From Pristiophorus japonicus (lineage: Eukaryota), in NCBI RefSeq assembly GCF_044704955.1, contig NC_091993.1:131006001-131070000 (forward strand): DNA of 64,000 nucleotides. The letters are read 5' to 3'. The notes beneath the pieces were generated by a model. That model had not been told where the DNA came from. It searched no databases and saw nothing but the letters and a program-made list of their open reading frames with translations. The stretch's first letter is position 1, and the number at the start of each line of letters is the position of its first letter. The translations under genes were made by a program, and so were the position numbers. Shown one piece after another: positions 1 through 61,479 of this stretch.

Positions 1-1043
1 CCTGGTGCAAGGCTCAAGGATGTCTCGGAGCGGCTGCAGGGCATTCTGGAGGGGGAGGGTGAACAACCAGCTGTTGTGGTGCATACAGGTAAAAAATGGG
101 ATGAGGTCCGACAAGCTGAATTTAGGGAGCTAGGAGTTAAATTAAAAAGTAGGACCTCAAAAATGTAGTAATCTCAGGATTGCTACCAATGCCACATGCT
201 AGTCAGAGTAGGAATAGCAGGATAGTTCAGATGAATATGTGGCTTGAGGAGTGGTGCAAGAGGGAGGGATTCAAATTCCTGGGACATTGGAACCGGTTCT
301 GGGGGAGGTGGGACCAGTACAAACCAGACGGTCTGCACTTGGCTAGGACCGGAACCGATGTCCTAGGCAGAGTGTTTGCTAGTGCTGTTGGGGAGGGTTT
401 AAACTAATATGGCAGGGGGATGGAAATCTATGCAGGGAGGCAGAGGGAAGTAAAAAAAAAAAGGGGCAGAAGCAAAAGGAGAAAAGTAAGAGTGGAGGGC
501 AGAGAAATCAAGGGCAAAAATCAAAAAAGGGCCACTTTACAACATAATTCTAAAAGGAAAAAAAGTGTTAAAAAAACAAGCCTGAAGGGTCCGAGTCTCC
601 ATGCGAGGAGCATTCGTAATAAGGTGGATGAATTGACTGCACAGATAGCTGTTAATGGATATGATGTAATTGGGATTACGGAGACAAGGCTCCACGGTAA
701 CCAAGGCTGAGAACTAACATCCAGGGGTATTCAATATTCAGGAAGGATAGACAGAAAGGAAAGGGAGATGGGATAGCATTATTGGTTAAAGAGATTAACG
801 CAATAGTAAGGAGGGACATTAGCTTGGATGATGTGGAATCTATATGGGTAGAGCTGCGGAACACCAAAGGGCAGAAAACGTTACTGGGCGTTGTGTACAG
901 ACCACTAAACAATAGTAGTGAGGTTGGGGATGGCAAACAAGAAGAAATTAGGGATGCAATAAAGGTACAGCAGTTATCATGGGTGACTTTAATTTACATA
1001 TAGATTGGGCTAACCAAACTGGTAACAATACTGTGGAGGAGGA
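1..1043 (+). mobile_element. CR1 LINE, 5' part (ORF1 esterase C-terminus plus ORF2 endonuclease start), interrupted by ERV
   Basis: ORF 180-407 (...YKPDGLHL...GEGLN) is an SGNH esterase-type ORF1. ORF2 APE motifs SIRNK, GITET, ESIWVEL, GVVYRP and MGDFN follow. The sequence resumes exactly at 8629/8635. Confidence 0.92.
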
Positions 1044-1370
1044 TGTTAGAGAATTCAAGCTCTGCAGCCCGGCTGCAGTTTTGAAAAAAAACACAGACCA
1101 CACTGCATTAAGTCATCAACTTGACATTTTAGGACCTTTGGGTAGTGAGCCAATTAAAGGTTAACAGACTATTAATTGAGCCAATGAGATCAAAGAAGGC
1201 GAGTTCTTTTCTGTAAACTGATCAGGTATATAAACAGCCATTTTGGCAATGTGGTCTCAGAAGGACAAAGGCCTGGCTTAAAGCCAAGAGCTTGTTGCTG
1301 TTGCCAGAATAAAATTACATTAAAACTACAACCGGAGTTCGTATTTCATTGGAAATTAAGAGATCTAACA
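1044..1370 (+). repeat. ERV 5' LTR (327 bp)
   Basis: TGTTAGA...TCTAACA inverted ends; two GAGCCAAT boxes; TATATAAA 1227-1234; AATAAA 1308-1313; direct repeat of 8303-8628. Confidence 0.96.
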
Positions 1371-1374
1371 ATTT

Positions 1375-1392
1375 TGGCGTCACGAACACGAT
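1375..1392 (+). promoter_or_regulatory. Primer binding site, tRNA-Ser(CGA)-like
   Basis: TGGCGTCACGAACACGAT lies 4 nt after the LTR. It matches 17/18 to the complement of a vertebrate tRNA-Ser(CGA) 3' end as I recall it (TGGCGTCACGAACAGGAT). Confidence 0.8.
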
Positions 1393-1657
1393 CGCTGAGG
1401 GAAGAAACTGAATTTTGGACATCGGACCTACATACTGAGGTAAGGACTCCTCTTTATAAAAGTCCTCGGTCAAAAGTCTAAATTCGCTTCTCCTTCTACA
1501 CAATTCTGAATGCCTCCGGTTTGCGAACCCTCCGGTTGGTAGTCGGCTCGAGGTCCCATAGACGTCTAACTTCGGCGGTGTGTTAGTTAATTAATCACCG
1601 ACCTACTGATCGGCTGGAAAGCCTACGACTCGAGACCCCAGTAAAGAAATCAGTATT

Positions 1658-3214
1658 ATGGCAGCAGGAGACAAGAACAAAGAATGGCCTACAACTGTTA
1701 AAGGCGGGCAGGCACCACCTGAGGTTTCGATAGATGAAATCCTCCAACAGTTGAAAGAATACATAGAGCAACAATTCAACTTATCTAAAACCTGTATTAA
1801 GATCGAACAAAAGTACGGAACCTCCAAAGGACAATGGTCCTTGGACGAGATTAAAAGGGTCTGGGGAAAAACGACCCGTATGAAAAATAAAGAGCGAACC
1901 AGATGGTCCCTAGCCGTTATGGGACAGATTCGAAAGCGGAATGAAATTATAATGCGTTCCCAACATGATCGAGAACTGACCAGTACAAAAGGACCAACTG
2001 CTTGTGCACAGCTGCGACAGACAAGACTTGAACTTGAAAAATCGGAAGCGGAAGTTAAAGATCTTAAAGATGAAATTAAAGAATGGAAAAAATCATTAGG
2101 TCAAGAGACAGTAATAGGAAAAGGAAAATGTATCGGTCAATTCCCAGGGTACCCATGTTTGGATAAATTAAAAGCGCAAACGCGAAGACACGACCGAGGA
2201 ATAGATACGGATTCTGAATCCTCCGACAATACAGGATCGGAGGATGAAGAATTAGGGGTGAGCTTTGCCCAGTTTAAAAAAAGACGCGGTGTAGTCAAAT
2301 CAGAAGAGACTGCGGATGAGGACGGAACCAAAAAAACAAAGAAAAGGGTGTATGCAGAATATTTAGTTCATGATCCGGCAGACCCAGAGAAAATTGATAA
2401 ATGGTCCAAGGAGTTGCCCAATCCAAAGAAAGGGGGAGTGAAAACGTGGGACCAATTGGACCGCTCAAGAAATATATATCAACTTCATCCCTGGGACGGA
2501 GTGCAAATTTTGACCATAATGGTGCCAAAAACGCAGGGAAGAAAATTGCACGACAAGGTAGATGAAGCTTTGGGGCAGGATGAGCAAGAATTAGACACAG
2601 GATGGGAAGCGATTAAACACTGGCTGCAAGCCTTCAGTCCAGCTAAGACAGACTGGGGAAAAATTGCAGCCTGCCAACAGAAAGAAACAGAGGAGGTCCT
2701 GGAGTATGACGAGCGGTTTAGATGTACGTGGCTAGAACATTCGGGTATGAATAATACGGATGAGGAAATGGATGAACAAGTGTTTGGACCCCTGAAAGCC
2801 ACTTTCGTGGCAGGTCTAAAGCCAGAACTGTCCAAAATGCTTTAGGTAGTGTTAACGGACTGGGAAGGTAGAGGAACTACCTTTGCAGCATTGTTGGATC
2901 GATGTAACCAATTAGATCGGGATATGGGAGCTAAAGTCCGAGCTGTACAGACTATGGGATGCAAATCCCAGGATTCCAATAAACAGTTATCTGGAAAATT
3001 ACCTGGAAAATGTCATTATTGTGGGAAAGAAGGTCACTGGGCCAAGACGTGCAGGGCAAAACAGAAAGGTCGTGGCTGGGGAAGAGGACGCAGCCAGGGA
3101 TACAATTCAGCCAACAAGCCAGGCTTGTCACAAGATAACGATCTCATAGAAGCATTTAAGCGACTGACAATACAACAACAGAAGGAGTTACTTGGGATAG
3201 CAAAAAACGATTAG
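1658..3214 (+). pseudogene. gag: ERV gag (about 518 codons, one in-frame TAG at 2843-2845)
   Basis: ORFs 1658-2845 and 2849-3214 share a frame. MHR-like QQKETEEVLEYDERF, single CCHC knuckle CHYCGKEGHWAKTC, and YPxL-like motif YPCL. Confidence 0.9.
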
Positions 3215-6200
3215 AGCCCACCCTGGCCCCCCTCCTCGCACTAATACAACAGAGAGGAGATGGGCTATATACAACTGTGAGGGTGGGCGATAAGGATGTG
3301 GACTGTCTTTTAGACACTGGGGTGGAATTAACATGCTTACCCCTACAATATGGAGACTTTTTGCCGTTGGATGGTAGGGCACGTACAGCCTATGGAGTTG
3401 GGGGCCATAAAATGGAAATTAAAAAGGACAACACCGGTATTTATAGGGCTGGGTCCACATGAACTAACCACACCGGTCTGGATAGGCCCAGTAGATCAAC
3501 CCCTTTTGGAAATGGACGTTCTAATCCAAGTAGATTCATCGTTGCATTTCGAGGATGGTCGGGTGACATGGTCAATTAGAACTTTGAAGAAAGAAGAATT
3601 GAAGGAACACCCGATATGGGCTAAAGATAAGAATGATTGTGGCCTACTCCAGATGGAGCCTGCGTCATTTACCGGGACCAAGCCTCCATGCACTAAACAG
3701 TATCCCATCAGTCCAACTGCCATCGCGGGAATCTTACCGGTTATTCAGCAATTGGAGAAACAAGGGGTGCTTATTAAAATGCATAGCTCCTCCAATAGCC
3801 CCGTGTGGCCGGTACAGAAATCTAATGAGACTTGGCGTTTGACTGTCGATTATAGGAAAGCTAACCAGTGTATTGATCAAAAAGCTCCTTTGGTCGCAGA
3901 TCCCTCCACCATTTTTAATGCCCTCAAACCGGAACATAAATATTTCTCGGTTATAGATATGGCCAACGGATTTTGGTCGGTGCCTCTAGCACCGGAGGTT
4001 CGACAGTGGTTTGCTTTCACGGTCCAAGGACAATAGTATACTTGGACCCGGTTACCGCAGGGTTTCCACAACAGCCCTACGGTATTCCACATGGCTTTAC
4101 AAAGCTATTTGCGAGGATTACCTCCCCTGTCATCCAATATGTAGACGATATCCTGCTAGCTTCAAACACAGAAGAACAGCATGAACAAGATTTACGAGCT
4201 TTGCTGAACCACCTTCGGCTGAAAGGACATAAAGCCAGCATCGACAAAGCACAAATATCCCAAGAAGAGGTTGTATACCTGGGACAAAAGATTTCACAAG
4301 GAGAGAACTTACCCAGGATAGAACTTACCCATTCTGCCTGCTAAAAACCCCACCACTATTCAGGTACTAAGGTCTTTTTGGGGATTGTGTAACTTTAACA
4401 GAAATTGGATTGACTCCTTCACACAGCTTGCTCAGCCACTCAATGATATTTTAAAGGGGAAACGTGCCTCTAAAGAAGCCATCACCCTCATTAAGGAACA
4501 GCAAGAGGCCTTCCTGAGTTTGAAAAAGGCTTTGTGTTCGGCACCGGCTCTGGGAATCCCCGACAGTGGTAAGCCATTTACCCTGTTTGTCCATGAGAAA
4601 GAAGGATACATAACAGCTATACTGACACAAGAACATGGGGATCGGCAAAGACCTATTGGCTATTATTCGGCAAAACTGGATGCGGTAGCCCTTGGATGGG
4701 GAAGTTGCCTAAGGGCCATGGAAGCTACATGTCGAGCGGTAATGATCACTGCGGGTCTAGTCCTCGACCAAAAGCTGATTGTCAAGTGTCCCCACACCGT
4801 ACACGCTTTGCTGTCTATGAATAGAATGTCTCAGGTGACAGCAGCAAGATGGACCCGCTGGACAGCAGTTTTGGAAGCTCCTAATCTCCATATCGTCCGG
4901 GCCAGCCCGGTTAATCCCGCAACCATGCTCCCGATGTCAGAATCAAGGGAGCAAGAGGGGGGAGAATGTGAAGAGCATGACTGCATGGAGATTTTAAAAG
5001 AAACAGAAGAAGCAGCCTTAGCAGCAGAGGAGCCTCTGCACAACCCAGACCTCATCCTGTTTACAGATGGTTCCTCCTTTGTTGACAATGGTACCAGAAA
5101 AGCAGGATGGGCAGTTACAACCTTATATGAGGTAGTAGCAAAAGGATGTTTACCCTCAGTTACGGGCCCTGTCAGAAGCATGTCGAATAGCAGAAGGACA
5201 GACAGCCAAGGTCTACTCAGATTCGCGTTATGCTTTTGGAGTCGCTCACGACTTTGGTCTGTTATGGCGGAAAAGAGGATTCCTCACTGCTGCTGGTATA
5301 CCTATCCGAAATGGAAAAGAAGTCCGAGACTTACTAGAGACCATACAATTACCTCAGGAAGTGTCCATCCTGAAGTGTAAGGCACATACCAAGGAAAATA
5401 CCACGGAAGCACAGGGAAATGCCCTAGCCGACCAGGCAGCTAAAGATGCCGCCTCACAGGGTGTTCCCCCAGAAGAACCAACACAGATGTACAGATTGAA
5501 AGCACTCAGGACTCTGACATGAGACCTTCAAACAATGCAAGGCGAGTGCTCCCGAGAGGAAAAATGGACATGGATTGAGGCAGGAATTAAGCTATGTGAA
5601 GATGGTGTCTGGAGACAAAGAGTTACCGACAAGCCAGTCACGCCACAAGCGCTTATGCCTTTTTTAGCCCAACAGATCCACTCGTGGGGACATTTGGCCT
5701 CACAACAGATGACAGCACAGTTCCAGAAAAGCTGGTGGGGTCGGGGATTTAAAAAACATGCCCAGCTGGTAACAGACCGCTGTGTGGTCTGCCAGAAAAA
5801 TAATTCTGGACCCATCACGCTAATGTCCCAACTGAGGCCCCCTGCCCCTGTTGGACCATTCCAGCATCTGCAGGTTGATTATATATCTCTTCCTTCATGC
5901 CAAGGATACACTAACATTCTTGTCATGGTCGACAGATTCTCTAGATGGGTAGAAGCTGTCCCAACTAAAAGAGCCACAGCCAATCACACTGCAAAGGTCT
6001 TGTGTAAGGATTACATTCCCCGATGGGGAGTCCAGAGTAGCATTGACTCAGATCAGGGAACACACTTCACAGGTGCTGTCTGCCAAGAAGTCTGTAGGTT
6101 ACTGAACATTACGTGGGATTTACACTGTCCTTATCATCCACAATCATCAGGACAAGTAGAGCGAATGAATCGAACTCTGAAACAACAGCTTGCCAAATAT

Positions 6201-6650
6201 CACCAAGAAGGATCACCATGGCCCCAGGCACTACCAATAGTGCTATGTAGCATTAGGGCAACCCTGAACAGAACTACAGGTCTAAGCCCATTTCAAATTA
6301 TAACAGGAAGACCCATGTCGCTGCCAGGAACTATCGATTTACGGAAAGCTGATGTTCACTTAATGAGTGACACTTTGTTATCATACTGTCAGAACCTAAC
6401 CAATGCTATTAGTTCTGTTTCTCGACAGGTATCGGCAGCTTGGGGTAATCCACCCGAAGGAGGACACGACATTATCCCGGGAGTCTGGGTGTATGTGAAA
6501 AAGTTGCATAAAGAACTTTTGGGTGCCAAGTGGGAGGGACCTCATCAAGTATTATTGACCACCCAGGCAGCTGTTAAAGTCCAAGGAAAGAAAGCCTGGA
6601 TCCACACTTCACACGTTAAACAAGCACCCGTAACTGAAGCTGAAATCTAA
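3208..6650 (+). pseudogene. pol: ERV pro-pol (protease, RT, tether, RNase H, integrase) with several frameshifts and stops
   Basis: LLDTG protease; LPQGFHNSP and QYVDD in RT; FTDGSS and DSRYAF in RNase H; HHCC, D-D-E (QVDY, SDQGTHF, QVERMN) and GPH module in integrase ORF 5535-6650. Confidence 0.95.
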
Positions 6651-6674
6651 TAAGGACAATTACTTTTTGCGAAA

Positions 6675-7923
6675 ATGTATAAATTTACTGCATTACTGAT
6701 TGTAGGTATTCTAGGCATAGGCCTACTTCTTACTAGCCGACCCTCTGTACCAAAGGGAAATAGTAGGGTAGCAAGGGAATTACATGTAAATACCTTTTTA
6801 TATATATCATACATTTATGCCAAACAAGGTAACATTTCGAGTTGTTGGGTGTGTGCGCATATTCCTATTCACTCAAAGGGAGGGATTCCCTTGAGGCCAG
6901 TTCCCTTGAATATCTCGGAAATGGCTGAGTGGATAATTAATCAAAACAAAACAGGCAATGCGTTTCAGGATTCGGAGAACTGGGCACGTAAATGGAAGTC
7001 AGCAGGTTACAATCTGACTACCTTTGAAGGGGGATACCAACCGTGCTACAATAATTCCAAACGGCCCCCATTTTTTGTTATCACTAATACAACGGGAATA
7101 GGAAGACCGGGGGAATCCGTCTGTCTGATTAGAAACATTAAAGGAGGCCAAAATATGGGGTGTAGCAACTGCTCCCGGAATTATAATGTAACCAAGCCAC
7201 GGAACCGTCCAAACTGGGCCGATGTGGGAATTTTTAAACGCACCAGGGATTCTGAATAAAAAAGATGGAAAAGCTTGGACAGGCCCCGGAGTGTTGCTGA
7301 CAAAGAAACAGCTAACATTCATTGCCTATAATGGCACCTATTGGGTGTGTGGCCACAAGGCCTACCCTTGGCTGCCCCAGAATTGGACGGGATCCTGCTA
7401 TTTAGCCTACATTGTGCCTTATATGTATCATATAGAGTCACTGTCGGAACATTTACACTGTCCTAAGAGAGCTATCACAGAAACAGAGAGGTTCTTTGCC
7501 ATTCTGATCCCCGGGTATGGGACCACCAGACTGGCAAGGGAATCCATTAACATGGCATCCGTTGTGCAACGGGTAGCCAATGATACCTCAGAGGCCCTAG
7601 TTAAAATCAATGCAGAAATGGTAGCAATCCGCTCAGTAGCCCTACAGAATAGACTGGCCCTTGATTCCATCCTGGCTGAAAAGGGAGGTACTTGCGCCCT
7701 ACTCGGAACTGAGTGTTGCACATATATCCCAGATAGCTCCGAAGAAATGACCCACTTAGCGGAGCATATCCAAAAGGAGGTAGAAAAACTTAAGCAACCC
7801 CCATCATTCACTTTGTGGAGTGGAGCCACTGAATGGCTAGGTTCAATAGGAACTTCATTGGTGGAAGGTTTAATTCTATTTGTTGTAATTGTTTTATTTA
7901 TATTGTTTGATTATGTTGATTAA
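6675..7923 (+). pseudogene. env: ERV env, gamma-type (frameshift near 7222-7259)
   Basis: Signal-like hydrophobic N-terminus; SU CWVC (CxxC); cleavage site CPKR/AITE; immunosuppressive domain LQNRLALDSILAEKGG; CX6CC (CALLGTECC); C-terminal TM anchor. Confidence 0.93.
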
Positions 7924-8291
7924 AATGTTGTTGCGACCAGGCGGCTGTAGCTGCTGTCCCGCAGGTGAGACACCTTGCAGGTCCCAGCAGACCGTCTGTA
8001 CGTGGCACAGGGGTATATTATGCTTAAGGGAAGGTTGTTTACTGGTTGAATTAAGATATTGATTTGGATTAAATTGGAATAAGGTTAATCAACCTACTAA
8101 AACCAGACTTCCATTGTGGCCACGATGGAATTCAGATTGGTGTAAATTTGTGTGGAAGTTACTAGTCCGGACTTGTGGTGAAACACATCAACAAATTTTA
8201 GAAGGAAACTCTATTAACATGTATGAAATTATTTTTTAGAATGTTTAACCAGTGATACCTGATGTTTTATGATTCAGTTTGTGAAAGAATC

Positions 8292-8300
8292 AAAGGGGGG
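8292..8300 (+). promoter_or_regulatory. ERV polypurine tract
   Basis: AAAGGGGGG followed by AT, then the LTR start TG. Confidence 0.85.
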
Positions 8301-8302
8301 AT

Positions 8303-8628
8303 TGATAGAGAATTCAAGCTCTGCAGCCCGGCTGCAGTTTTGAAAAAACACAGACCACACTGCATTAAGTCATCAATCAACTTGACATTTTAGGACCTTT
8401 GGGTAGCGAGCCAATTAAAGGTTAACAGACTATTAATTGAGCCAATGTCAAAGAAGGAGAGTTCTTTTCTGTAAACTGATCAGGTATATAAACAGCCATT
8501 TTGGCCATGTGGTCTCAGAAGGACAATGGTCTGGCTTAACGCCAAGAGCTTGTTGCTGCTGCCAGAATAAAATTACATTAAAACTACAACCAGAGTTCGT
8601 ATTTCATTGGAAATTAAGAGATCTAACA
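8303..8628 (+). repeat. ERV 3' LTR (326 bp)
   Basis: Matches the 5' LTR with 9 substitutions and 3 short indels (manual count). Confidence 0.96.
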
Positions 8629-11047
8629 AGAGGATTTCCTGGAGTGTATAAGAGATGGATTTCTAGATCAATATGGAACCAACTGGAGAGCAGGCCATCC
8701 TAGACTGGGTCTTGTGTAATGAGAAAGGACTAATTAGCAATCTTGTGCGAGACCCCTTGGGGAAGAGTGACCATGATATGGTAGAACTCTTCATTAAGAT
8801 GGAGTGTGACAGTTAATTCAGAGACTAGGGTCCTGAACTTAAAGAAAGGTAACTTCGATGGTATGAGATGTGAATTGGCTAGGATAGACTGGCAAATGAT
8901 ACTTAAAGGGTTGACGGTAGATAGGCAATGGCACACATTTAAAGATCACATGGATGAACTACAACAATTGTACATCCCTGTCTGGCGTAAAAATAAAACA
9001 GGGAAGGTGGCTCAACCGTGGCTAACAAGGGAAATTAAGGATAGTGTTAAATCCAAAGGAAGAGGCATATAAATTGGCCAGGAAAAGCAGTAAACCTGAG
9101 GACTGGGAGAAATTTCGAATTCAGCTGAGGAGGACTAAGGGTTTAATTAGAAGTGGGGGGTGAAATAGAGCATGAGAGTAAGCTTGCAGGGAATATAAAA
9201 ACTGATTGCAAAAGCTTCTATAAATATATGGAGAGAAAAAGATTAGTGAAGACAAATGTAGGTCCCTTGCAGTCAGAATCAGGTGAATTCATTATGGGGA
9301 ACAAGGAAATAGCAGACCAATTGAACAAATACTTTGGTTCCGTCTTCACTGAGGAAGACACGAATAACCTCCCGAAAATACTAGGGGACCGAGGGTCTAG
9401 CGAGAAGGAGGAACTGAGGGAACTCCTTATTAGTCAGGAAATGGTGTTAGGGAAATTGATGGGATTGAAGGCCAATAAATCCCCAGGCCTGATAGTCTGC
9501 ATCCCAGAGTACTTAAGGAAGTGGCCCTAGAAATAGTGGATGCATCGGTGGTCATTTTCCAACATTCCATGAACTTTGGATCAGTTCCTATGGACTGGAG
9601 GGTAGCTAATGTAACCCCACTTTTTAAAAAAAAGGAGAGAGACAGAAAACAGGGAATTATAGACCGATTAGTCTGACATCAGTAGTGGGGAAAATGCTGG
9701 AATCAATTATTAAAGATGTAATAGCAACGCATTTTGAAAGCAGTGACATGATCAGTCCAAGTCAGCATGGATTTATGAAAGGGAAATCAAGCTTGACAAA
9801 TCTTCTAGAATTTTTTTGAGGATGTAACTAGTAGAGTGGATAAGGGAGAACCAGTGGATGTTGTGTATTTGGACTTTAAAAAGGCTTTTGAGAAGGTCCC
9901 ATACAAGAGATTAGTGTGCAAAATTAAAGCACATGGGATTGGGGGTAATGTATTGACATGGATAGAGAACTGGTTGACAGACAGGAAGCAAAGAGTGGGA
10001 ATAAACAGGTCCTTTTCAGAATGGCAGGCAGTGACTAGTGGGGTACCGCAAGGTTCAGTGCTGGGACCCCAGCTATTTACAATATATATATATAATATAA
10101 ATGATTTAGAGAAAGGAATTGAATGTAATATCTCCAAGTTTGCAGATGACACTAAGCTGGGTGGCGGTGTGAGCTGTGAGGAGGATGCCAAGAGGCTGCA
10201 GGGTGACTTGGACAGGTTATGTGAGTGGGCAAATGCATGGCAGATGCAGTATAATGTGGATAAATGTGAGGTTATCCACTTTGGTGGCAAAAACAGGAAG
10301 GCAGATCATCTGAATGGTGACAGATTAGTAAAAGGGGAGGTACAAGAAGACCTGGGTGTCATGGTACATCAGTCATTGAAAGTAGGCATGCAGGTACAGC
10401 AGGCGGTGAAGAAAGCAAATGGCATGTTGGCCTTCTAATGAGAGGATTTGAGTATAGGAGCAGGGAGATCTTGCTGCAATTGTACAGGGCCTTGAATATT
10501 GTGTTCAGTTTTGGTCTCCTAATCTGAGGAAGGACATTCTTGTTATTGAGGGAGTACAGCGAAGGTTCACCAGACTGATTCCCGGGATGGCAGGACTTAC
10601 ATATGAGAGACTGGATCGACTGGGCTTGTATTCACTGGAATTTAGAAGAATGAATGAATGAGAGGGGATCTCATAGAAGCATATAAAATTCTGACGGGAT
10701 TTGAGAGGTTGGATGCAGGAAGAATGTTCCCGATATTGGGGAAGTCCAGAACCAGGGGTCACAGTCTAAGGATAAGGGGTAAGCCATCTAGGACCGAGAT
10801 GAGGAGAAACTTTTTCCACTCAGAGAATTGTGAACCTGTGGAATTCTCTACCACAGCAAGTTGTTGAAGCCAGTTCGTTGAATATATTCAAAAGGGAGTT
10901 AGATGTGGCCCTTACGGCTAAAGGATCAAGGAGTATGGAGAGAAAGCAGGAAAAGGATACTGAAGTCGCATGATCAGCCATGATCATATTGAATGGTGGT
11001 ACAGGCTCAAAGGGCTGAATGGCCTGCTCCTGCACCTATTTTCTATG
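8629..11047 (+). mobile_element. CR1 LINE, 3' part (ORF2 RT, degenerate) with 3' tail
   Basis: VYLDFKKAF, GVPQGSVLGP, KFADDTK; ends ...CCTATTTTCTATG; continues the element at 1-1043. Confidence 0.93.
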
Positions 11048-38601: not shown

Positions 38602-41070
38602 CTAAGCTGTACCACGTACAATTATTATAACTAGACAGTCTTCTTCAGATTTGGCCAGGGCTCGAGCACAGGTTTGCAGATACTGTTGAGAAAAATCACA
38701 TGGAGGGAAAGCATGAAGCACACCGCTGTGGTCCTTCTCTTTGCTTCCTCCAACAGGCAGGCTGATGACACCAGCAGCCTGCTTTTGTTTTAGATAAGAT
38801 ACCAAGTTCCTCAGGGGTCTCTGTGGTGAAGTGGCTTGCTCTATAGCAGAGGACATCCCTTCCACATTTTCCATGCTGTTCAGTGCTGGTACGGCCAACA
38901 GGACACAATAGCCATTCGTGCCTGATGCCTTGATGCGTCTTGTTACCTCATCCAATTTAGGCTGATCTAGTCGTAAGCGCTGGGTGATTTTTAACTGTGC
39001 TATTTTTCCACCAGTTGAGACGTCCACTAATAAGTTGGTTGCAACGCTCAGATCACCTTCAAGGAAGTGCATATTCGTGGAGAAAGAACTATTTTTTAGA
39101 ACCAGCATTCCATGCCAGGCTACATTCAACTTGCGTTCATATTCCTGGAAGCTGTCAGATGCTTTGGCATTGGTGGAGTCGGATTTAGATTTGCTCCGCG
39201 TGGGACTTGCACATTCTGTAGTTCTATGTTTGCGGTCTTTATCCTTTTCGATCAAGTTTATAGCTTTCATCTCATGCTTACCACAAGAAACTTTTTCTAT
39301 GCTGTTACGGCGATCCCGACTGGGCGAATACCGCTCATTCTTGGCATCGCGGTCGGAGTCACTGTGACGCCCGCCATCACGGCTGCTATTACCCGGGCTA
39401 CGATCCGGCGAAATACAACGCCGCTTTCTAGACCGGTCATTACTGGGTGAATCAGTGGGGCGGGTGTCCGGAGGCCCTCTCCTTTTTCTTCTTTGGTCCC
39501 AATTTTGTAAAATATGGTCACGCCCACGTTCAAGAGACCAGCTATCCCGGACTTCACGATCGAGGTGATCAAATGGTTCGTGGCTATTCCGGTTTCTTTC
39601 CCGGACAGAAAGGACATGCCAGTCGTTGGCAGCAAAGAGGTCCCTTTCTCTGTAATGCATTGGGGGAGAATTCCTTTCCCTACCCCTCAGGCACTCCGCA
39701 CCACGGGGAAGAAGGCCGTCTCCAATCAAATCAAAATGAGGCAGAGGCAAGGCTTGCAGATATTGAGGATATCGATGCTCTGTATCTGCAAAGTCAACTC
39801 TTAGCCGCCGATCTGGTCCACCCAAGGGAAAGCCACGCATCTGAGTACAAGCAGCTTGTGCAGCATCCAAGCTTTCATACTGAATATAAGCCCAACTATC
39901 TCCCTTTCTGTAGTCAATAGACCTTATCGTCCCAAAGCGGTCAAATTCCCTTGCAAGACCAGCTACAGGAACCCAGGCACCCAATCCCCCAACCCACAAG
40001 CGAGTGGTTGGGGTCGCTTTCCCATAACCAATCTTGATAGGATTTCTCCCGATCACTTTGCCAGACATTGCAAGCTTAGCTCTGTGGGCCATGTCCAAGT
40101 TTTCAAATTTCAGGAAACCATATGAATTTCCTTGCCCACGAGGTGGCCGTTTGATATCCACCTCCAAGATAACTCCGAACCGTTCAAATGCAAGCAAAAG
40201 ATCATTTTGTGAAACTGAAGGGTCCAAGTTACCAATAAACAACGTCCTATTTGCTCTCTTGTCATCTTCTGGCAAGATTTCATCTTCCCTGAATGTAGTT
40301 CTGTCAAGTGTGTATGCAGCTCGTCCCCGGCCTTCATAAAAGGCATAATCACGCTCCCTTTCCAAATCTCTCTGGGGAGGCGGAGGTGGAGGAGGTGGCG
40401 GTGGTATCTGACGTCCCAAAGAACTGCGCTGCTGAGCTCGGTGTTCTCTGTAACCAAGTCCTGCAGGGGAAAGCGACCTCTGCCTGTGACGGTTGCCCTG
40501 GACACTTGGTGCAGAATACCCATCCAGTTCAGGGGAATAACTTCTTCCTTTTGGAGGAGGATAAACCGTTTCGATTTTCAGAGGGCGATCGTGCAGCACC
40601 AGCCTGCCCTTGGCATGCCTGGCAGCCTTGGCATCCTCAGAGTGCCTGAAATTCACCAGGGCCACCCTTTCATCCCCATCCCTGGATATTTTCACACTAA
40701 CATCCCCAAACTTCTTAAACTCGTGGAACAGCCCATCCTCAATGGCACCATCACTCAACTGGGAGCCCAAATTGCTGATCTTTAGAGTTTTGTATTCACC
40801 AGGTTGCCTCTCATTCCTGCTAGTCCTTGAGGAAGCAGAGGAAAGACTCAAGTTATTAGCAGTTCGGTTGGGAGGATAGACATCATAGTCTCTGTTGTTG
40901 GTCCTTTTGCCACTAATATTGCGAGTCCTCTTGGCATTGCCATGGTTCTTGTTGTTCCTATTGATGCTGTTGTGATTATTCCCCATTTTCCTGGGCTGCT
41001 GGTGGTGGCCTCCTCGCCTGTCCTCCCCGCGTTTACCGCCAGCTTTGGGCGACACGTCCTTCTCCTTCAT
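38602..41070 (-). CDS. RBM15: RNA-binding motif protein 15 (SPEN family; 3 RRMs plus SPOC), 822 aa, single large coding exon
   Basis: YKTLKIS.LGSQLSD..EDGLFHEFK.FGDVSVKIS, RANRTLF.GNLD, KATPTTRLWVGGLG, DFADTEHRY, and SPOC QRLRLDQPKLDEV...AKSEED.L.IIVRG. These diagnostic segments match RBM15 rather than RBM15B. Intact ORF. Confidence 0.95.
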   Translation of the reverse strand: MKEKDVSPKAGGKRGEDRRGGHHQQPRKMGNNHNSINRNNKNHGNAKRTRNISGKRTNNRDYDVYPPNRTANNLSLSSASSRTSRNERQPGEYKTLKISNLGSQLSDGAIEDGLFHEFKKFGDVSVKISRDGDERVALVNFRHSEDAKAARHAKGRLVLHDRPLKIETVYPPPKGRSYSPELDGYSAPSVQGNRHRQRSLSPAGLGYREHRAQQRSSLGRQIPPPPPPPPPPQRDLERERDYAFYEGRGRAAYTLDRTTFREDEILPEDDKRANRTLFIGNLDPSVSQNDLLLAFERFGVILEVDIKRPPRGQGNSYGFLKFENLDMAHRAKLAMSGKVIGRNPIKIGYGKATPTTRLWVGGLGAWVPVAGLAREFDRFGTIRSIDYRKGDSWAYIQYESLDAAQAACTQMRGFPLGGPDRRLRVDFADTEHRYPQYLQALPLPHFDLIGDGLLPRGAECLRGRERNSPPMHYRERDLFAANDWHVLSVRERNRNSHEPFDHLDREVRDSWSLERGRDHILQNWDQRRKRRGPPDTRPTDSPSNDRSRKRRCISPDRSPGNSSRDGGRHSDSDRDAKNERYSPSRDRRNSIEKVSCGKHEMKAINLIEKDKDRKHRTTECASPTRSKSKSDSTNAKASDSFQEYERKLNVAWHGMLVLKNSSFSTNMHFLEGDLSVATNLLVDVSTGGKIAQLKITQRLRLDQPKLDEVTRRIKASGTNGYCVLLAVPALNSMENVEGMSSAIEQATSPQRPLRNLVSYLKQKQAAGVISLPVGGSKEKDHSGVLHAFPPCDFSQQYLQTCARALAKSEEDCLVIIIVRGTA

Positions 41071-41960
41071 ATTCCTTCGGTTTCACAATAATTAATCCAA
41101 GCCGTATCGAAAGATCGGATTTAACCCGCTTTTAAAGCGATTTATTGATCCAAAATGCGGGCGGGTTGCGCGGCTCCCTCACTGCCGCTGCTTCATGTCG
41201 ATTGCGGGGAGAATGGAAGCAATCGGCACGTTTGAATCGACACTTTCCCTCACCCGATCCGCCGATGTGCCGCTTGCTTTGCTTCTCTCGCGGTTCCCGA
41301 TGGATTTTTTTTCCCTCACTTCTTTCCCGGAGATTTTCACCGACGCCGAAAAGCCTCCCGCCTCGCCGCCGCCATTTTGTACCACGCCCCGCCCCACCGC
41401 CCCGCGCTGATTGGCCGGGGTCTGCGGTCCTCGCGCTCCGATTGGCCGGGGTCTGCAGTCCCCGCGCTCTGATTGGTCGGCCCGGGTTGTCATTCAGCCG
41501 ACACCATGGTGACGCTCGGGAGCAATCGCTGCTTGAAATGTGAGCCAGCGGCTGGAAATGGCGGCGGAGCGGAGCAGAAGCCGGGCCCGAGAGTTTGCAG
41601 GCGCAATGGCGGAGGTTGGTGCGTGTTTTTACTCTGCTGTGATTGGGCCTGCTCGTGGGCCAATCGCCTGGCCCGAGTTTTAGCGGCGTTTCTCTCTGAA
41701 CAAAATGTGGAGAAATTGACCGATTGTGTTGCGAAAAATCTCAACAAAAAATTACTTCAAAAAAACATCGGCGGAAAACGCTGTTCGAATTCAAACGGAC
41801 GGACAGCTCGCCCCGCCCCTTTACTACGCTCCCATTGGCTGCAGCCGAGCGCTCTGTCGCCTGATTTGCTGCTTCACACGTCAAACAAACGGGAGCCCCG
41901 CCCTCTAGATATTCATAGGCTGAGCGCGCAGGACGCCATTCGGCCCATTGTGCCCCTCTC
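41000..41960. promoter_or_regulatory. CpG-island promoter of RBM15, probably bidirectional
   Basis: CpG-rich in a CpG-depleted background; YY1 motif GCCGCCATTTTG 41368-41379; GC box about 41386-41395; ATTGG at 41410, 41441, 41472; further CCAAT/ATTGG at about 41642, 41660, 41834. Confidence 0.85.
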
Positions 41961-41989: not shown

Positions 41990-44150
41990 CACAGCTGACC
42001 CTGCCATTATCTTCCGGCCACATCCACAGCAGAGCTAAACCCGCCTCTTTCCACCTGTGTAACATCGTCTGTCTCTGCCCCGCCTCAGCTCATCCGCTGC
42101 TGAACCCCTCATCACTGCCTTTGTTACCTCCAGACCTCACTACTCCAACACACTCCTGGCCGGCCTCCCACATTCTACCCGACGTAAACTCGAGGACATC
42201 CAAAACTCGGCTGCCCCATGTCCGAACTCACACCCAGTCCCGCTCACCCATCACCCCTGTGCCCCGTGTCCTAACTCGCACCCAGTCCCGCTCACCCATC
42301 CCCCCTGTGCCCCGTGTCCGAACTCGCACCCAGTCCCACTCACCCATCACCCCCTGTGCCCCGTGTCCGAACTCGCACCGAGTCCCGCTCACCCATCCCC
42401 CCTGTGCCCCGTGTCCTAACTCGCACAGAGTCCCACTCACCCATCACCCCCTGTGCTCACTGCCCCGTGTCCGAACTCGCACCCAGTCCCACTCACCCAT
42501 CACCCCCTGTGCTCCGTGTCCTAACTCGCACAGAGTCCCACTCACCCATCACCCCCTGTGCTCCGTGTCCGAACTCGCACCCAGTCCCACTCACCCATCA
42601 CCCCCTGTGCTCACTGCCCCGTGTCCGAACTCGCACCCAGTCCCACTCACCCATCACCCCCTGTGCCCCGTGTCCGAACTCGCACCCAGTCCCACTCACC
42701 CATCACCCACTGTGCTCACTGCCCCGTGTCCGAACTCGCACCCAGTCCCACTCACCCATCACCCCCTGTGCCCCGTGTCCGAACTCGCACCCAGTCCCAC
42801 TCACCCATCACCCCCTGTGCTCACTGCCCCGTGTCCTAACTCACACCCAGTCCCACTCACCCATCACCCCCTGTGCCCCGTGTCCGAACTCGCACCCAGT
42901 CCCACTCACCCATCACCCCCTGTGCTCGCTGCCCCGTGTCCGAACTCGCACCCAGTCCCACTCACCCATCACCCCCTGTGCTCACTGCCCCGTGTCCTAA
43001 CTCACACCAAGTCCCACTCACCCATCACCCCCTGTGCATCGTGTCCGAACTCGCACCGAGTCCCGCTCACCCATCACCCCCTGTGCTCACTGACCCGTGT
43101 CCTAACTCGCACCGAGTCCCACTCACCCATCACCCCCTGTGCTCACTGCCCCGTGTCCTAACTCACACCGAGTCCCGCTCACCCATCACCCCCTGTGCCC
43201 CGTGTCCTAACTCGCACCGAGTCCCGCTCACCCATCACCCCCTGTGCTCACTGCCCCATGTCCTAACTCGCACCGAGTCCCACTCACCCATCACCCGCTG
43301 TGCTCACTGCCCCGTGTCCGAACTCACACCCAGTCCCACTCACCCATCACCCCCTGTGCCCCGTGTCCTAACTCGCACCGAGTCCCGCTCACCCATCACC
43401 CCCTGTGCTCACTGACCCGTGTCCTAACTCACACCGAGTCCCGCTCACCCATCACCCCCTGTGCCCCGTGTCCTAACTCGCACCGAGTCCCGCTCACCCA
43501 TCACCCCCTGTGCTCACTGACCCGTGTCCTAACTCTCACCGAGTCCCGCTCACCCATCACCCCCTGTGCCCCGTGTCCTAACTCGCACCCAGTCCCGCTC
43601 ACCCATCACCCCCTGTGCTCACTGCCCTGTGTCCTAACTCGCACCCAGTCCCGCTCACCCATCACCCCCTGTGCTCACTGCCCCGTGTCCTAACTCGCAC
43701 CCAGTCCCGCTCACCGACCTACATTGGCTCCTGATTAAGCAGCGCCTCGATTTCAAAATTCTCATCCTTGTTTTCAAATCCCTCTATGACCTCGACCCTC
43801 CCTATCTCTAATCTCCTCCAGCCATCCCCCCCCCCCCCCCCACAACGAGATATCTGCACTCCTCTAATTCTGCCCTCTTGAGCATCCCTGATTGTAATCG
43901 CTCCACCATTGGTGGCTGTGCCTTCTGTTGCCTGGGCCCCCAAGCTCTGGAACTCCCTGCCTAAACCTCTCTACCTCTCTTTCCTCCTTCAAGATGCTCC
44001 TTAAAACATACATCTTTGACCAATCTTTTGGGTACCTGCTCTCATTTCTACTTGTGTGGCTCGGTGTTACATTTTTAGTGCATAATAATCCTTTGAAGCG
44101 CCTTGGGACGTTTCACTACATTAAAGGTGCTATATAAATGCAAGTTATTG
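41990..44150 (+). mobile_element. L2 3' fragment with internal tandem expansion
   Basis: L2 sequence up to ...CCAAAACTCGGCTGCCC, then the array, then resumes GACCTACATTGGCTCC through the 3' tail. Confidence 0.88.
42212..43715. repeat. L2-derived minisatellite 1 (49- and 56-bp units, about 28 copies)
   Basis: CCCCGTGTCC(G/T)AACTCGCACCCAGTCCCACTCACCCATCACCCCCTGTG(CTCACTG) repeated. Confidence 0.95.
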
Positions 44151-44472
44151 TTCATTCCATTTTTGTCTATCTATTCGTAGCCAGAGAATCACCTGCAACG
44201 GCTTCTCTTCCTGCCTCCGCATCGTTACCTCTGGTTTCCCCCAAGGATCTGTCCTTGGCCCCTCCTATTTCTCATCTACATGTTGTCCCTCGGCGATATC
44301 ATCTGAAAACAGAGTCAGTTTCCACATGTACGCTGACGACACCCAGCTGTACCTCACCACCACTTCTCTCGATCCCTCCACGGTCTCTAAATTGTCAGAC
44401 TGCTTGTCCAACATCCAGTTCTGGATGAGCAGAAGTTTCCTCCAATTAAATATTGGGAAGACCGAAGCCATT

Positions 44473-45096
44473 GGGCTGGATTTTCACTCTTCTGCCTCTG
44501 TTAGCGCCCCAGAGGGGTGGCAATGGCGACGATAAGCACTTCTGGGCGGGCGGGCAGCTTGCAGTGTCCCGCCGGGACATTCGGAGCCGGTTTGGATGGG
44601 TCGCAGAGCAGTACCGCCCGGGAGACTGGAGACGGGAGACGGTGTACAATGTCCCTGGTTGTGACACCGACTCGATTTTTGGTTGCCACCCGACCCGTAG
44701 CACTCTGTAGAGCACCCTGTTGGGACCGCCTGTGGAAGCTGGCGCTCTGAGCTGTAGCGGCTGTCGTGAGGTAAGTTATGTCGACCTCAGGTGAGCGTAT
44801 TATTTTTTTTGCGATTTATGTTGTGGTGGCTTGAGTTATGTATTGGGAATGTTTTCGGTGTTATTTTTTCAGGTTCCCCCGCGCCCCGAGTCCTCTCTTA
44901 TGGCGCTCCGAGTCCAGCTGTTTAGTTTGTGATTTTCGCTTGCTCAGCCGGCCTCGTGCCCTAAAAGAGGTGTGCAACTCCTCACTTCGCGATCCGCTCC
45001 AAACTCCGGGCTCAGCTGATGAATTATGCGGCGGCAGTTGCAGACTTTACCACCCAGGACAACGCCGCAACAGAGGCGCGGCCGAATTTCTCCCCC
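44473..45096. mobile_element. Non-autonomous DNA transposon (PIF/Harbinger-like MITE), 624 bp
   Basis: Cleanly interrupts the L2 codons for EAI/VFGP; ATT on both sides (44470-44472 and 45097-45099); GGG...CCC ends with weak TIRs; CpG-rich. Confidence 0.7.
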
Positions 45097-45413
45097 ATTG
45101 TCTTTGGTCCTCGCCACAACCTCTGTTCCCTCGCCACCGACTCCATCCCTCTCCCGAGCATCTGTCTGAGGCTGAACCAGCCCTTCGCAACCTTCGCAAC
45201 CTTGACCCTGAAACGACCACATATTCTAAAACTAACTAAAACCCGCCTATTTCCACCTCTGTAACATCGCCCATCTCCACCCCGCCTTAGCTCATCCACT
45301 GCTAAACCCCTCATCCGTGCCTTTGTTATCTCTAGACTTCACTACTCCAATGTACTCCTGGCTGGCCTCCCACATTCTACCCTATGCAAACATGAGGTCA
45401 TCCAAAATTCGGC

Positions 45414-46735
45414 AGCCCGTGTCCTAACTCACACCGAGTCCCGCTCACCCATCATCCCCTGTGCTCACTGACCCGTGTCCTAACTCACCCCCAGTCCCGC
45501 TCACCATCACCCCCTGTGCTCACTGCCCATGTCCTAACTCACGCCCATGTCCTAACTCACACCCAGTCCCACTCACCATCACCCCCTGTGCTCACTGCCC
45601 GTGTCCTAACTCACACCCAGTCCCGCTCACCATCACCCGCTGTGCTCACTGCCCCGTGTCCTAACTCACACCCAGTCCCGCTCACCCATCATCCCCTGTG
45701 CTCGCTGCCCCGTGTCCTAACTCACACCCAGTTCCGCTCACTCATCATCCCCTGTGCTCGCTGCCCCGTGTCCTAACTCACACCCAGTCCCGCTCACTCA
45801 TCATCCCCTGTACTCACTGCCCGTGTCCTAACTCACACCCAGTCCCACTCACCATCACCCCCTGTGCTCACTGCCCGTGTCCTAACTCACACCCAGTCCC
45901 GCTCACCATCACCCGCTGTGCTCGCTGCCACGTGTCCTAACTCACCATCATTCCTTGTGCTCGCTACCCTGTGTCCTAACTCGCACCAAGTCCCACTCAC
46001 CCATCACCGCCTGTGCTGACCCGTGTCCTAACTCACACCCAGTCCCGCTCACCATCACCCGCTGTGCTCGCTGCCACGTGTCCTAACTCACCCAGTCCCG
46101 CTCACTCATCATCCCCTGTGCTCACTGCCCCGTGTCCTAACTCACAACCAGTCCCGCTCACCATCATTCCTTGTGCTCGCTACCCTGTGTCCTAACTCGC
46201 ACCAAGTCCCACTCACCCATCACCGCCTGTGCTGACCCGTGTCCTAACTCACACCCAGTTCCGCTCACGCATCACCCCCTGTGCTCACTGCCTCGTGTCC
46301 TAACTCACACCCAGTTCCGCTCACTCATCATCCCCTGTGCTCACTGCCCCGTGTTCTAACTCACACCCAGTTCCGCTCACGCATCACCCCCTGTGCTCAC
46401 TGCCTCGTGTCCTAACTCACACCGAGTCCCACTCACCCATCACCCCCTGTGCTCACTGCCTCGTGTCCTAACTCACACCGAGTCCCACTCACCCATCACC
46501 CCCTGTGCTCACTGCCCCGTGTTCTAACTCACACCCAGTTCCGCTCACTCATCATCCCCTGTGCTCACTGCCCCGTGTTCTAACTCACACCCAGTTCCGC
46601 TCACCCATCACCCCCTGTGCTCACTGCCTGTGTCCTAACTCGCACCAAGTCCCGCTCACCCATCACCCCCTGTGCTCGTTGCCTGTGTCCTAACTCGCAC
46701 CAAGCCCCACTCACCCATCACCCCCCTGTGCTTGC
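45414..46735. repeat. L2-derived minisatellite 2 (about 24 copies, more diverged)
   Basis: Same L2 segment as in array 1, tandemly repeated. Confidence 0.95.
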
Positions 46736-51700: not shown

Positions 51701-53551
51701 TTTTGTTTTTTGCCTTGGGTTTCTCTGTCCTCCACTTTTACTATTCTCCTTTCTATCTTTTGCTTCTGCCTCCATTTTATTTCTCTCTGTCTCCCTGCAA
51801 AGGTTCCCATCCCCCTGTCATGTTAGTTTAACTCCTCCCCAACAGCACTAGCAAACACTCCCCCTAGGACATTGGTTCCGGTCCTGCCCAGGTGTAGACC
51901 GTCCGGTTTGTACTGGTCCCACCTCCCCCAGAACCGGTTCCAATGTCCCAGGAATTTGAATCCCTCCCTGCTGCACCACTCCTCAAGCCACGTATTCATC
52001 TGAGCTATCCTGTGATTCCTACTCTGACTAGCACATGGCACTGGTAGCAATTCTGAGATTACTACTTTTGAGGTCCTACTTTTTAATTTAGCTCTTAGCT
52101 CCCTACATTCGTCTCATAGGACCTCATCCTGTTTTTTTACCTATATTGTTGGTACCTAAAAGCACCACGACAACTGGCTGTTCACCCTCCCTTTTCAGAA
52201 TGTCCTGCACCCACTCCGAGACATCCTTGACCCTTGCACCAAGGAGGCAACATACCATCCTGGAGTCTCGGTTGCGGCCGCAGAAACGCCTATCTATTCC
52301 CCTTACAATTGAATTCCCTATCACTATCGCTCTCCCACTCTTTTTCCTGCCCTCCTGTGCAGCAGAGCCAGCCACGGTGCCATGAACTTGGCTGCTGCTG
52401 CCCTCCCCTGATGAGTCATCCCCCTCAACAGTACCCAAAGCGGTGTATCTGTTTTGCAGGGGGATGACCGCAGGGGACCCCTGCATTACCTTCCTTGTAC
52501 TGCTCTTCCTGTTGGTCACCCATTTACTATCTGGCTGTGTACCCTTTACCTGCAGTAAGACCAACTCACTAAACGTGCTGTTCACATCATTCTCAGCATC
52601 GTGGATGCTCCAGAATTCATCCACCTGCAGCTCCAGTGCCGCAATGCTGTCCGTCAGGAGCTGCAGGTGGATACACTTCCCGCACACGTAGTCGTCAAGG
52701 ACACCGGAAGCGTCCCTGACTTCCCACATAGTACAGGAGGAGCATAACACGTGTCTGAGCTGTCCTGCCATGACTTAACCCCTAGATAGATTTAATTTGT
52801 CAACAACAATGCTAAATGTTACTTACTGATAAAGAAAAGAAAAAAGAAAAGCTGCTTACCAATCACCAGCCAATCATTTACCCCCTTGGCTGTGATGTCA
52901 CCTTTTGATTTCTTTCTACTTCTTTTTTGCCTTCTCTCCCAGCTGCAGCTACACAAGCTCCGCCTTTATAGGGCACTCGCCTCCCGCCTCCAGACTGCTG
53001 CCGCTCGCCTCGAACTGTTGGGCCTTTATAGGGCACTCGCCTCCCGCCTCCAGACTGCTGCCGCTCGCCTCGAACTGTTGGGCCTTTATAGGGCACTCTC
53101 CTCCCGCCTCCCGCCTGCTGCCGCTCGCCTCGAACTGTTGGGCACTCGCCTCCCGCCTCCCGACTGCTGCCGCTCGCCTCGAACTGTTGGGCCTTTATAG
53201 GGCACTCGCCTCCCGAACTCCCGCCTGCTGCCGCTCGCCTCGAACTGTTGGGCCTTTATAGGGCACTCGCCTCCCGAACTCCCGCCTGCTGCCGCTCGCC
53301 TCGAACTGTTGGGCCTTTATAGGGCACTCTCCTCCCGCCTCCAGACTGCTGCCGATCGCCTCGAACTGTTGGGCCTTTATAGGGCACTCGCCTCCCGCCT
53401 CCCGCCTGCTGCCGCTCGCCTCGAACTGTTGGGCCTTTATCGGGCACTCGCCTCCCGCCTCCAGACTGCTGCCGCTCGCCTCGAACTGTTGGGCCTTTAT
53501 AGGGCACTCTCCTCCCGACTCCCGCCTGCTGCCACTCGCCTCGAACTGTTG
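48785..53551 (-). mobile_element. Full-length CR1 LINE (5' tandem monomers, ORF1, ORF2, tail); ORFs disrupted
   Basis: ORF1 51823-52771 (Cys finger CSSC...CGKC, esterase VIGNSIVRG, DGLHL); ORF2 fragments 49034-51650; tail at 48785. Confidence 0.94.
52962..53551 (-). repeat. Ten tandem ~60-bp monomers at the CR1 5' end
   Basis: Unit GCCTTTATAGGGCACTCGCCTCCCGCCTCCAGACTGCTGCCGCTCGCCTCGAACTGTTGG on +. Confidence 0.93.
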
Positions 53552-54109
53552 GGAGCCCGAGTAAAACTGAAGTCAATGGAAATCAGAGGGAAAACTCTCC
53601 ACTGGCTGGAGTCATACCCAGCACAAAGGAAAGATGGTTGTGGTGGTTGGAGGTCAATCATCACAGCCCCAGGACATCGCTGCAGGAGTTCCTCAGGGCA
53701 GTGTCATAGGCCCAACCATCTTCAGCTGCTTCATCAATGACCTTCCTCCATCATAAGGTCAGAAGTGGGGATGTTCGCTGATGATTGCACAGTGTTCAGT
53801 TCCATTCGTAACTCCTCAGATAATGAAGCAGTCTGTGCCTGCATGCAGCAAGACCTGGACAACATTCAGGCTCGGGCTGATAAGTGGCAAGTAACATTCA
53901 CACCACACAAGTGCCAGGCAATGACCATCTCCAACAAGCGAGAGTCTAACCACTGCCCCTTAACATTCAATGGCATTACCATCGTCGAATCCCCCACCAT
54001 CAACATCCTGGGGCACCATTGACCAGAAACGTAACTGGAGCAGCCACATCAATAACTGCTGGCCTTGCAGGGACACCCACTTCCCAGGAACAAATAATAA
54101 AAAAGGAAA

Positions 54110-60400: not shown

Positions 60401-61479
60401 CGTGTGGTGGCCCGGTATTGACTCTGACTTAGAGCCCTGTGTACGGCAATGCAGCGTGTGTGCTCAATTGAGCAACACGCCCAGAGAGGCACCATTAAGT
60501 TTGTGGTCCTGACCCTCCAGACCATGGTCGAGGATCCATGTTGACTATGCGGGCCCGTTTCTCGGTAAAATGTTCCTGATAGTGGTGGATGCTTTTTCAA
60601 AATGGATTGAAAATGAAATAATGTCGGGAAGCACCGCCACCGCCACCATTGAAAGCCTGAGGGCCATGTTTGCCACCCACGGCCTGCCTGACATACTGGT
60701 CAGTGACAACGGGCCATGTTTCACCAGTGCCGAATTTAAAGAATTCATGATCCGCAATGGGATCAAACATGTCACCTCGGCCCCGTTTAAACCAGCCCCC
60801 AATGGGCAGGCAGAGCGGGCAGTACAAACAATCAAACAGAGCCTTAAACGAGTCACGGAAGGCTCACTCCAAACCCGCCTGTCCCGAGTACTGCTCAGCT
60901 ACCGCACGAGACCCCACTCGCTCACAGGGGTGCCCCTGGCTGAGCTACTCATGAAAAAGACACTTAAAACCAGACTCTCGCTGGTTCACCCCAATCTGCA
61001 TGATCAGGTAGGGAGCAGGCAGCAGCAACAAAATGTAAATGATGGTCGCGCCACTGTGTCACGGGAAATTGATCTGAATGATCCTGTGTATGTGCTAAAC
61101 TATGGACATGGTCCCAAGTGGATCGTGGGCACGGTGATAGCTAAAGAAGGGAGTAGGGTGTTTGTAGTCAAACTAGACAATGGACAAATTTGCAGAAAGC
61201 ACCTGGACCAAACGATGCTGCGGTTCACAGACTGCCCTGAACAACCCACAGCAGACAGCACCTTTTTCGAGCCCACAACACACACCTAAAGGATCAACAA
61301 CACCACGCCGGACCAGGAAATTGAACCCATCACGCCCAGCAAGGCCAGGCTCACCCAGCAGCCCTGCAGGGCCAACAACACGCCAGCCCAGCGAGGGCAC
61401 AGCCAACACACCAGAACAGACATTTGAACCGAGGCGGTCCACCAGGGAAAGAAAGGCTCCCGACCGCCTCACCTTGTAA
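57492..61479 (+). pseudogene. Gypsy gag-pol polyprotein remnants
   Basis: EDWEAYIERL; twin knuckles CWRCGG.H...C and C..C...GH; ELDT protease; WASPIVPV.K.DG.VRICGDY; CDAS and TDHKPL RNase H; VVDAFSKW, SDNGP, NGQAER integrase. Multiple frameshifts and an RT deletion near 59350. Confidence 0.92.

Follow-up and report, generated by a model that had tools for sequence, protein, structure and literature searches.

A defective shark provirus from an unnamed group of fish endogenous retroviruses that likely branches just outside class I

A complete provirus with the layout LTR-PBS(Ser)-gag-pro-pol-env-PPT-LTR (LTR, long terminal repeat; PBS, primer binding site; PPT, polypurine tract) occupies positions 1044-8628 of a 64-kb stretch of the genome of Pristiophorus japonicus, hereafter the window (Table 1). 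An earlier examination of the letters alone, here called the sequence-only reading, had described it as an endogenous retrovirus (ERV) mixing class I, class II and class III hallmarks and as a candidate undescribed lineage. The LTR coordinates and the reverse transcriptase (RT), tether, RNase H, CCHC and Env motifs that it quoted are all present: NSPVWPVQK (3794-3820), WRLTVDYR (3833-3856) and IDMANGFWS (3953-3979) in RT, LTQEHGDRQRP (4622-4654) in the tether, DSRYAFGVAHDFG (5220-5258) in RNase H, a single CCHC knuckle in gag, and CWVC (6843-6854), the immunosuppressive domain (ISD; 7642-7665) and CX6CC (7693-7719) in env. Pfam matches within the provirus comprise zf-CCHC, RVT_1, RT_RNaseH, RNase_H, rve, MLVIN_C and TLV_coat. 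Every gene (gag, pro-pol and env) is broken, a further stop at 5520 lying immediately upstream of integrase (IN), so that the provirus is defective; this dead locus shows no sign of host function. All 30 provirus bins were covered by contigs from four of four runs, representing two organisms and many variants; the provirus therefore belongs to a multi-copy family, contig depth over it not being a measure of copy number. The LTR pair differs over 322 aligned sites by four transitions, five transversions and three gaps (Kimura two-parameter distance 0.028), which corresponds to ~65 million years at an assumed shark rate of 2.2e-10 and to ~6.5 million years at a mammalian rate, both quoted in the available part of PMC4422223, and the age is thus poorly fixed.

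The provirus splits a long interspersed nuclear element (LINE), which we take to be CR1-like. An uninterrupted paralog of this LINE with RVT_1 matches, 82-86% identical, lies on the minus strand at 52241-48787, where both provirus flanks join up; further LINE fragments occur in the window. The serine tRNA primer and the 5(-6)-bp target-site duplication (TSD) of the sequence-only reading also held. The PBS matches the 3′ end of tRNA-Ser(CGA) (locus L076) at 17 of 18 bases; 22 loci fitted the search pattern, one of which had a tRNA at the matching position. Four bases (1371-1374) separate the CA of the LTR from the PBS, the usual spacing being two. At this one locus both sides carry an exact GAGGA and the right side has one additional base, which can be read as a 5-bp TSD and an added base or as a 6-bp TSD containing a mismatch. 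Both lengths are compatible with the uninterrupted paralog and the empty-site joints; six letters that fit either side of the joint do not amount to a 6-bp TSD, the first T of the LTR matching the LINE.

Table 1. Features of the provirus and its insertion site (positions in the window)
Feature	Positions	Strand	Remarks
Host LINE, split by the provirus	1..1043, resumes from 8630	+	
Left target-site copy, GAGGA	1039..1043	+	6 bp when 1038 is counted
5′ LTR	1044..1370	+	ends TG...CA; TATA-like motif 1227; AATAAA 1308
Primer binding site, tRNA-Ser(CGA)	1375..1392	+	begins 4 nt past the LTR
gag	1658..3214	+	in-frame stop 2843-2845; single CCHC 3011-3052
Predicted -1 frameshift signal, A AAA AAC and stem-loop	3202..3270	+	function inferred
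Protease	3202..3580	+	DTG in LLDTG 3307-3321; -1 frame relative to gag; frame break ~3420
Reverse transcriptase	3581..4560	+	YVDD 4138; stop 4034; frame breaks ~4130 and ~4310
Tether (degenerate RNase H)	4561..4990	+	PF17919 and PF17917 matches
RNase H	5030..5480	+	frame break ~5156
Integrase	5523..6650	+	HHCC; D-D-E core; MLVIN_C/GPY-type tail (WEGP 6531-6542)
Gamma-type env	6675..7930	+	CWVC, ISD, CX6CC; frame breaks ~7240 and ~7920
Polypurine tract	8284..8300	+	read from sequence
3′ LTR	8303..8628	+	
One extra or mismatched base, then right target-site copy GAGGA	8629..8634	+	

Pol of the window element is, by domain, 44-66% identical to ERVs of ray-finned fish. A search with the N-terminal half of RT gave eight proteins among 177 candidates (61-67% identity, Astyanax and Coilia Pol included), the RT of protein P0005 as query gave 38 matches among 728 candidates, Alosa included, and cluster look-ups extended the group to Cyprinus, Danio and Lepisosteus. 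Outside the group, the best full-length matches reached 36-40% identity among the best 150 listed from a representative library. Proteins P0018, P0022 and P0058 are nearly identical by eye to published fish ERV rows. P0018 falls inside the window's clade; its 90% cluster contains 3937 sequences, a size that suggests massive recent amplification in one or more hosts. No relatives were confirmed among 72 pattern matches in viral contigs or 167 in metagenome contigs, and a Gag search produced one match among 2680 candidates, the Atlas matches being Gag-like but below 0.9.

Trees were built from rows containing all four Pol domains (77, of which 58 were used after removal of 19 near-duplicates), with partial, class II and gypsy rows added to the domain trees where alignable and the window pol read with X at its frame breaks. 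Viral contigs were scanned with two patterns, yielding 31 and 30 loci from which the reference isolates were taken; their genus labels are our assumption, assigned from motifs and lengths, whereas locus L028 was confirmed as snakehead retrovirus (SnRV) by motifs in a published alignment. The nine-row group to which the window element belongs formed one clade in RT, thumb/tether and IN. The RT tree (72 rows, 243 columns) supported the group at 100/100, the group together with classes I and II at 95/95, and classes I and II alone at 100/99; the corresponding values were 100/99, 99/97 and 98/91 in the IN tree (67 rows), and in concatenated Pol (58 rows, 850 columns, LG+G4, no class II) 100/100 for the group, 100/99 for the group with class I and 100/100 for class I alone. 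The thumb/tether and RNase H trees were less resolved than those of RT and IN, with group support of 100 and weak group support, respectively, and the fish group represented by Cy_ca_ERV4 and Oste.ERVi.1 held as one clade across the Pol domains, weakly in RNase H. By the approximately unbiased (AU) test, class I without the group was not rejected in thumb/tether (p 0.61, one long row out) or in RNase H (p 0.157, six rows out). A union of the group with epsilon viruses was rejected both by RT (p 0.005) and by concatenated Pol (p 6e-5), and joining it to six SnRV-like rows (SnRV and five amphibian or coelacanth ERVs) was narrowly, and marginally, rejected in RT (p 0.035). On these alignments the group is a branch adjacent to classes I and II under either rooting. 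Of the two origins that the sequence-only reading had offered, a deep-branching fish lineage is supported by the sister position to class I in RT, IN and concatenated Pol; an ancient intra-pol recombinant is not, as RT and IN agree in their placement and neither tether nor RNase H rejects it, and separate trees of RT, thumb/tether, RNase H and IN, of the kind that it had proposed as a check for incongruence, gave recombination no backing.

A second group (P0203, P0205, P0024, P0025 and P0133, with Mustelus and Heterodontus members) combines basal RT and IN with an RNase H near class I; in concatenated Pol its branch lies just outside the clade of the window group and class I (99/98). One of its proteins, P0025, carries two CCHC knuckles. 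This second group may be another stem lineage, or its RNase H may have been genuinely swapped.

Members of the window's group have been published before. The available part of Xu 2018 (PMC6001957) carries Cy_ca_ERV4 and Le_oc_ERV2, which match proteins of the window's clade, and in its S2 Fig their labels stand next to those of eel, pike and cod rows within the clade Huo labels, a listing that conveys label order only; a motif search of its alignment file gave no match. As far as the accessible text of Wang & Han 2023 (PMC10435555) goes, Mamb.ERVi.1, Oste.ERVi.1 and Eluc.ERVi.2 are intact, polymorphic ERVs, and many of its ERVi are not assignable to genera. All five have the same RT wording as the window copy, which is, in contrast to the published fish group, defective and older, and at most 63-66% identical to any group member. 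In the portions available of both papers the group is unnamed and its PBS, Env, frameshift and domain placement are not described, and a literature search outside Repbase, subscription journals and the bioRxiv Pol-LE.1/LE.2 supplements found neither a name for the group nor its placement as sister to class I nor the frameshift. The Pol-LE.1/LE.2 definitions may be relevant to whether the group already has a label. "Undescribed" has accordingly to be qualified: the group is already sampled in two published data sets, but is unnamed.

Protease lies in the -1 frame relative to gag, and the heptamer A AAA AAC at 3202-3208 stands in the gag register just 5′ of the gag stop. Seven slippery-type heptamers occur in 1600-3300, three of them in the gag register, and only the one at 3202 lies at the end of gag. 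The stem-loop 3′ of it has a z score of -3.3 and was equaled in stability by one of 200 shuffles. A contig from the second organism runs across 3162-3633 and has a single gap, which apparently coincides with the ~3420 break (25 further indel rows of that comparison fell outside the listing). In two cyprinid-clade proteins in which Gag and Pol are fused, the junction appears as KAQQEQEK and STKRTGK; six of seven positions are compatible with translation of a single stretch in the 0 and -1 frames, a level reached by one of 793 heptapeptides of that protein and by 2 of 60,792 overall. The -1 gag/pro offset is thus apparently present in the cyprinid relatives as well, and pro-pol is likely made throughout the group by -1 ribosomal frameshifting at A AAA AAC. 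In all six of the gamma, epsilon and SnRV isolates examined, gag is closed by an in-frame stop, in line with PMC3835772. The sequence-only reading had announced a class II hallmark and not specified it; this offset is a candidate.

By BLAST the element looks mosaic: the best isolate is SnRV for the N-terminal half of RT (119 bits vs 106) and a gamma or epsilon virus for tether, RNase H and IN; identity to SnRV is 42% in RT, 26% in thumb/tether, 33% in RNase H and 32% in IN. Close likeness to SnRV is confined to the N-terminal half of RT. Nor does the RT motif serve as the class III mark it was taken for, because WPV.K..WRLT.DYR wording is common to SnRV, foamy viruses (PVYPVPK..WRMVLDYR), MuERV-L (as it appears in a published supplement row) and, loosely, gypsy. 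It is best read as probably ancestral. Together with the trees and the junction, this leads us to conclude that the unnamed fish group likely lies just outside class I, likely frameshifts, and likely owes its mosaic features to ancestry rather than recombination.

Several observations weigh against this conclusion. A clade Huo-like arrangement (the group plus all non-foamy basal rows) ranks below the best tree but is not rejected by the AU test in RT (p 0.23), RNase H (p 0.14), IN (p 0.088) and concatenated Pol (p 0.074); with one long row removed, it gives the best tree of thumb/tether. RNase H weakly joins the group to epsilon viruses (Shimodaira-Hasegawa-like approximate likelihood ratio, 89-90). 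In the RT and IN trees, unlike in published ones, class II falls within class I on long branches, a warning of artefact, and the trees were made without ERV-L, ERV-S, ERV4, SSSV and lokiretrovirus sequences, pattern scans for ERV-L-like and SSSV-like RTs having given zero loci. At the gag-pro junction, the most stable stem begins 15 nt past the heptamer, the usual distance being 5-9 nt, and the cyprinid junction was inferred from proteins.

The Huo-like trees, the label order in the S2 Fig of Xu 2018 and the RT N-half match to SnRV are what would be expected if the group were an arm of clade Huo (in a wide SnRV/class III sense), with its class I likeness a shared ancestral state and its position hinging on the foamy root. 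We consider this unlikely: the best RT, IN and concatenated Pol trees join the group to class I with starred support, and RNase H identity is 24-28% to SnRV-like ERVs vs 41-50% to class I. The group's branch would in any case stand next to classes I and II in both readings. Descent from an intra-pol recombinant that took its RNase H, and perhaps its tether, from an epsilon-like class I virus appears more doubtful still. It would account for the RNase H tree and for the DSRY.FGV.HDFG wording common to the group and epsilon viruses while RT rejects their union, and RNase H and IN replacement has been reported in retroviruses (PMC7947760), but RNase H does not reject the RT/IN position, many class I ERVs outside epsilon have this wording too, and two crossovers would be needed since IN agrees with RT. 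That the element is an ordinary, epsilon-like class I ERV with a drifted RT is very improbable and largely refuted, despite its gamma or epsilon best matches in tether, RNase H and IN, its one CCHC, its MLVIN_C match and its gamma-type Env: class I without the group is supported at 100/100 in concatenated Pol, the union with epsilon is rejected, gag and pol are not separated by an in-frame stop, and the TSD is hard to read as 4 bp.

The element reads as a simple, env-bearing orthoretrovirus in which the latter part of Pol resembles class I and Env is of gamma type. Class I (gamma viruses, the epsilon viruses WDSV-WEHV, and ERV1) resembles the window element in tether, RNase H, GPY-type IN tail, one CCHC and gamma-type Env, and the class I trait of one or two CCHC knuckles with a GPY/F-type IN tail is present; the element differs in having RT and IN outside class I, a -1 gag/pro offset vs an in-frame stop, and a TSD of 5-6 vs 4 bp. 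Its RT is sister to, and not nested within, gamma plus epsilon. SnRV has WPV.K..WRLT.DYR, WTRLPQGFH and one CCHC in common with it and is unlike it in its 26-33% identity outside RT, in-frame gag stop and 1134-codon env frame without CX6CC. XtERV-S and ERV-L/ERV-S (class III; PMC8278194) likewise join a Ser PBS and a gamma-type transmembrane protein to a non-class-I RT, their 5-bp TSD comparing with 5 or 6 bp here. XtERV-S lacks CCHC, reads YIDD, encodes a dUTPase, closes gag with an in-frame stop and carries a Ser(AGA/TGA) PBS, whereas the window element has CCHC, YVDD, no dUTPase match, the -1 offset and Ser(CGA). A gamma-type Env on a non-class-I Pol was thus already known (PMC8278194; bioRxiv 2021.11.23.469661, in the parts available). 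From ERV3 (ERV-L/ERV-S), which lacks a zinc finger and GPY/F, the element departs in having CCHC and MLVIN_C; the 5-bp TSD of ERV3 compares with 5 or 6 bp here. ERV4 of crocodilians and turtles, as described in the available sections of Chong 2014 (PMC4299795), has an Env, no dUTPase and a position outside classes I and II, as does the window element, and a 5-bp TSD (5 or 6 bp in the window element), but lacks the zinc fingers and GPY/F motif that the latter has; the same sections leave SnRV- and Ovex1-related ERVs unclassified, some with zinc fingers or GPY/F. Class II/ERV2 was also set aside, RT not grouping with alpha, beta or delta viruses and CCHC not being double; the resemblance is limited to the frameshift and perhaps a 6-bp TSD. 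Lokiretrovirus, whose Env is by partial description like a Mononegavirales fusion protein, does not fit the gamma-type TLV_coat Env.

Under the ancestral interpretation, reverse transcription in the progenitor would have been primed by tRNA-Ser(CGA), Gag-Pro-Pol would have come from a single -1 ribosomal frameshift at A AAA AAC, Env would have been made from spliced RNA as disulfide-linked gamma-type surface and transmembrane subunits, and integration would have duplicated 5-6 bp. The group would have split after tether, RNase H and integrase tail had become class I-like and before NTP..P/QDLR wording arose in class I/II RT, and it would look mosaic because it split between those two steps. 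We propose more tentatively the fuller statement that it is a genus- or clade-level lineage, sister to all of class I (or classes I and II), still entering fish germlines and using a single -1 gag/pro-pol frameshift. If so, stop-codon read-through would have been fixed later on the class I stem or replaced in this branch. A long stem with few sampled lineages sets classes I and II apart from all other retroviruses. A lineage branching from it would help to order the changes in RT motifs, recoding strategy, TSD length and gamma-type Env, and would show that a label drawn from a motif, "class III RT" for example, may mark an ancestral state; the published polymorphic cyprinid and pike relatives show that the group is recent enough for genome study.

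Elsewhere in the window, an 826-codon open frame on the minus strand (38605-41082) encodes three RRM domains and a SPOC domain; it is presumably RBM15-like and probably a host gene. Long arrays of a 56-bp C-rich tandem unit occupy 42211-46732, with a 60-bp array at 52962-53553, and protease and integrase open reading frames on the plus strand at 57979-61286 mark a separate Ty3/gypsy-like LTR element.

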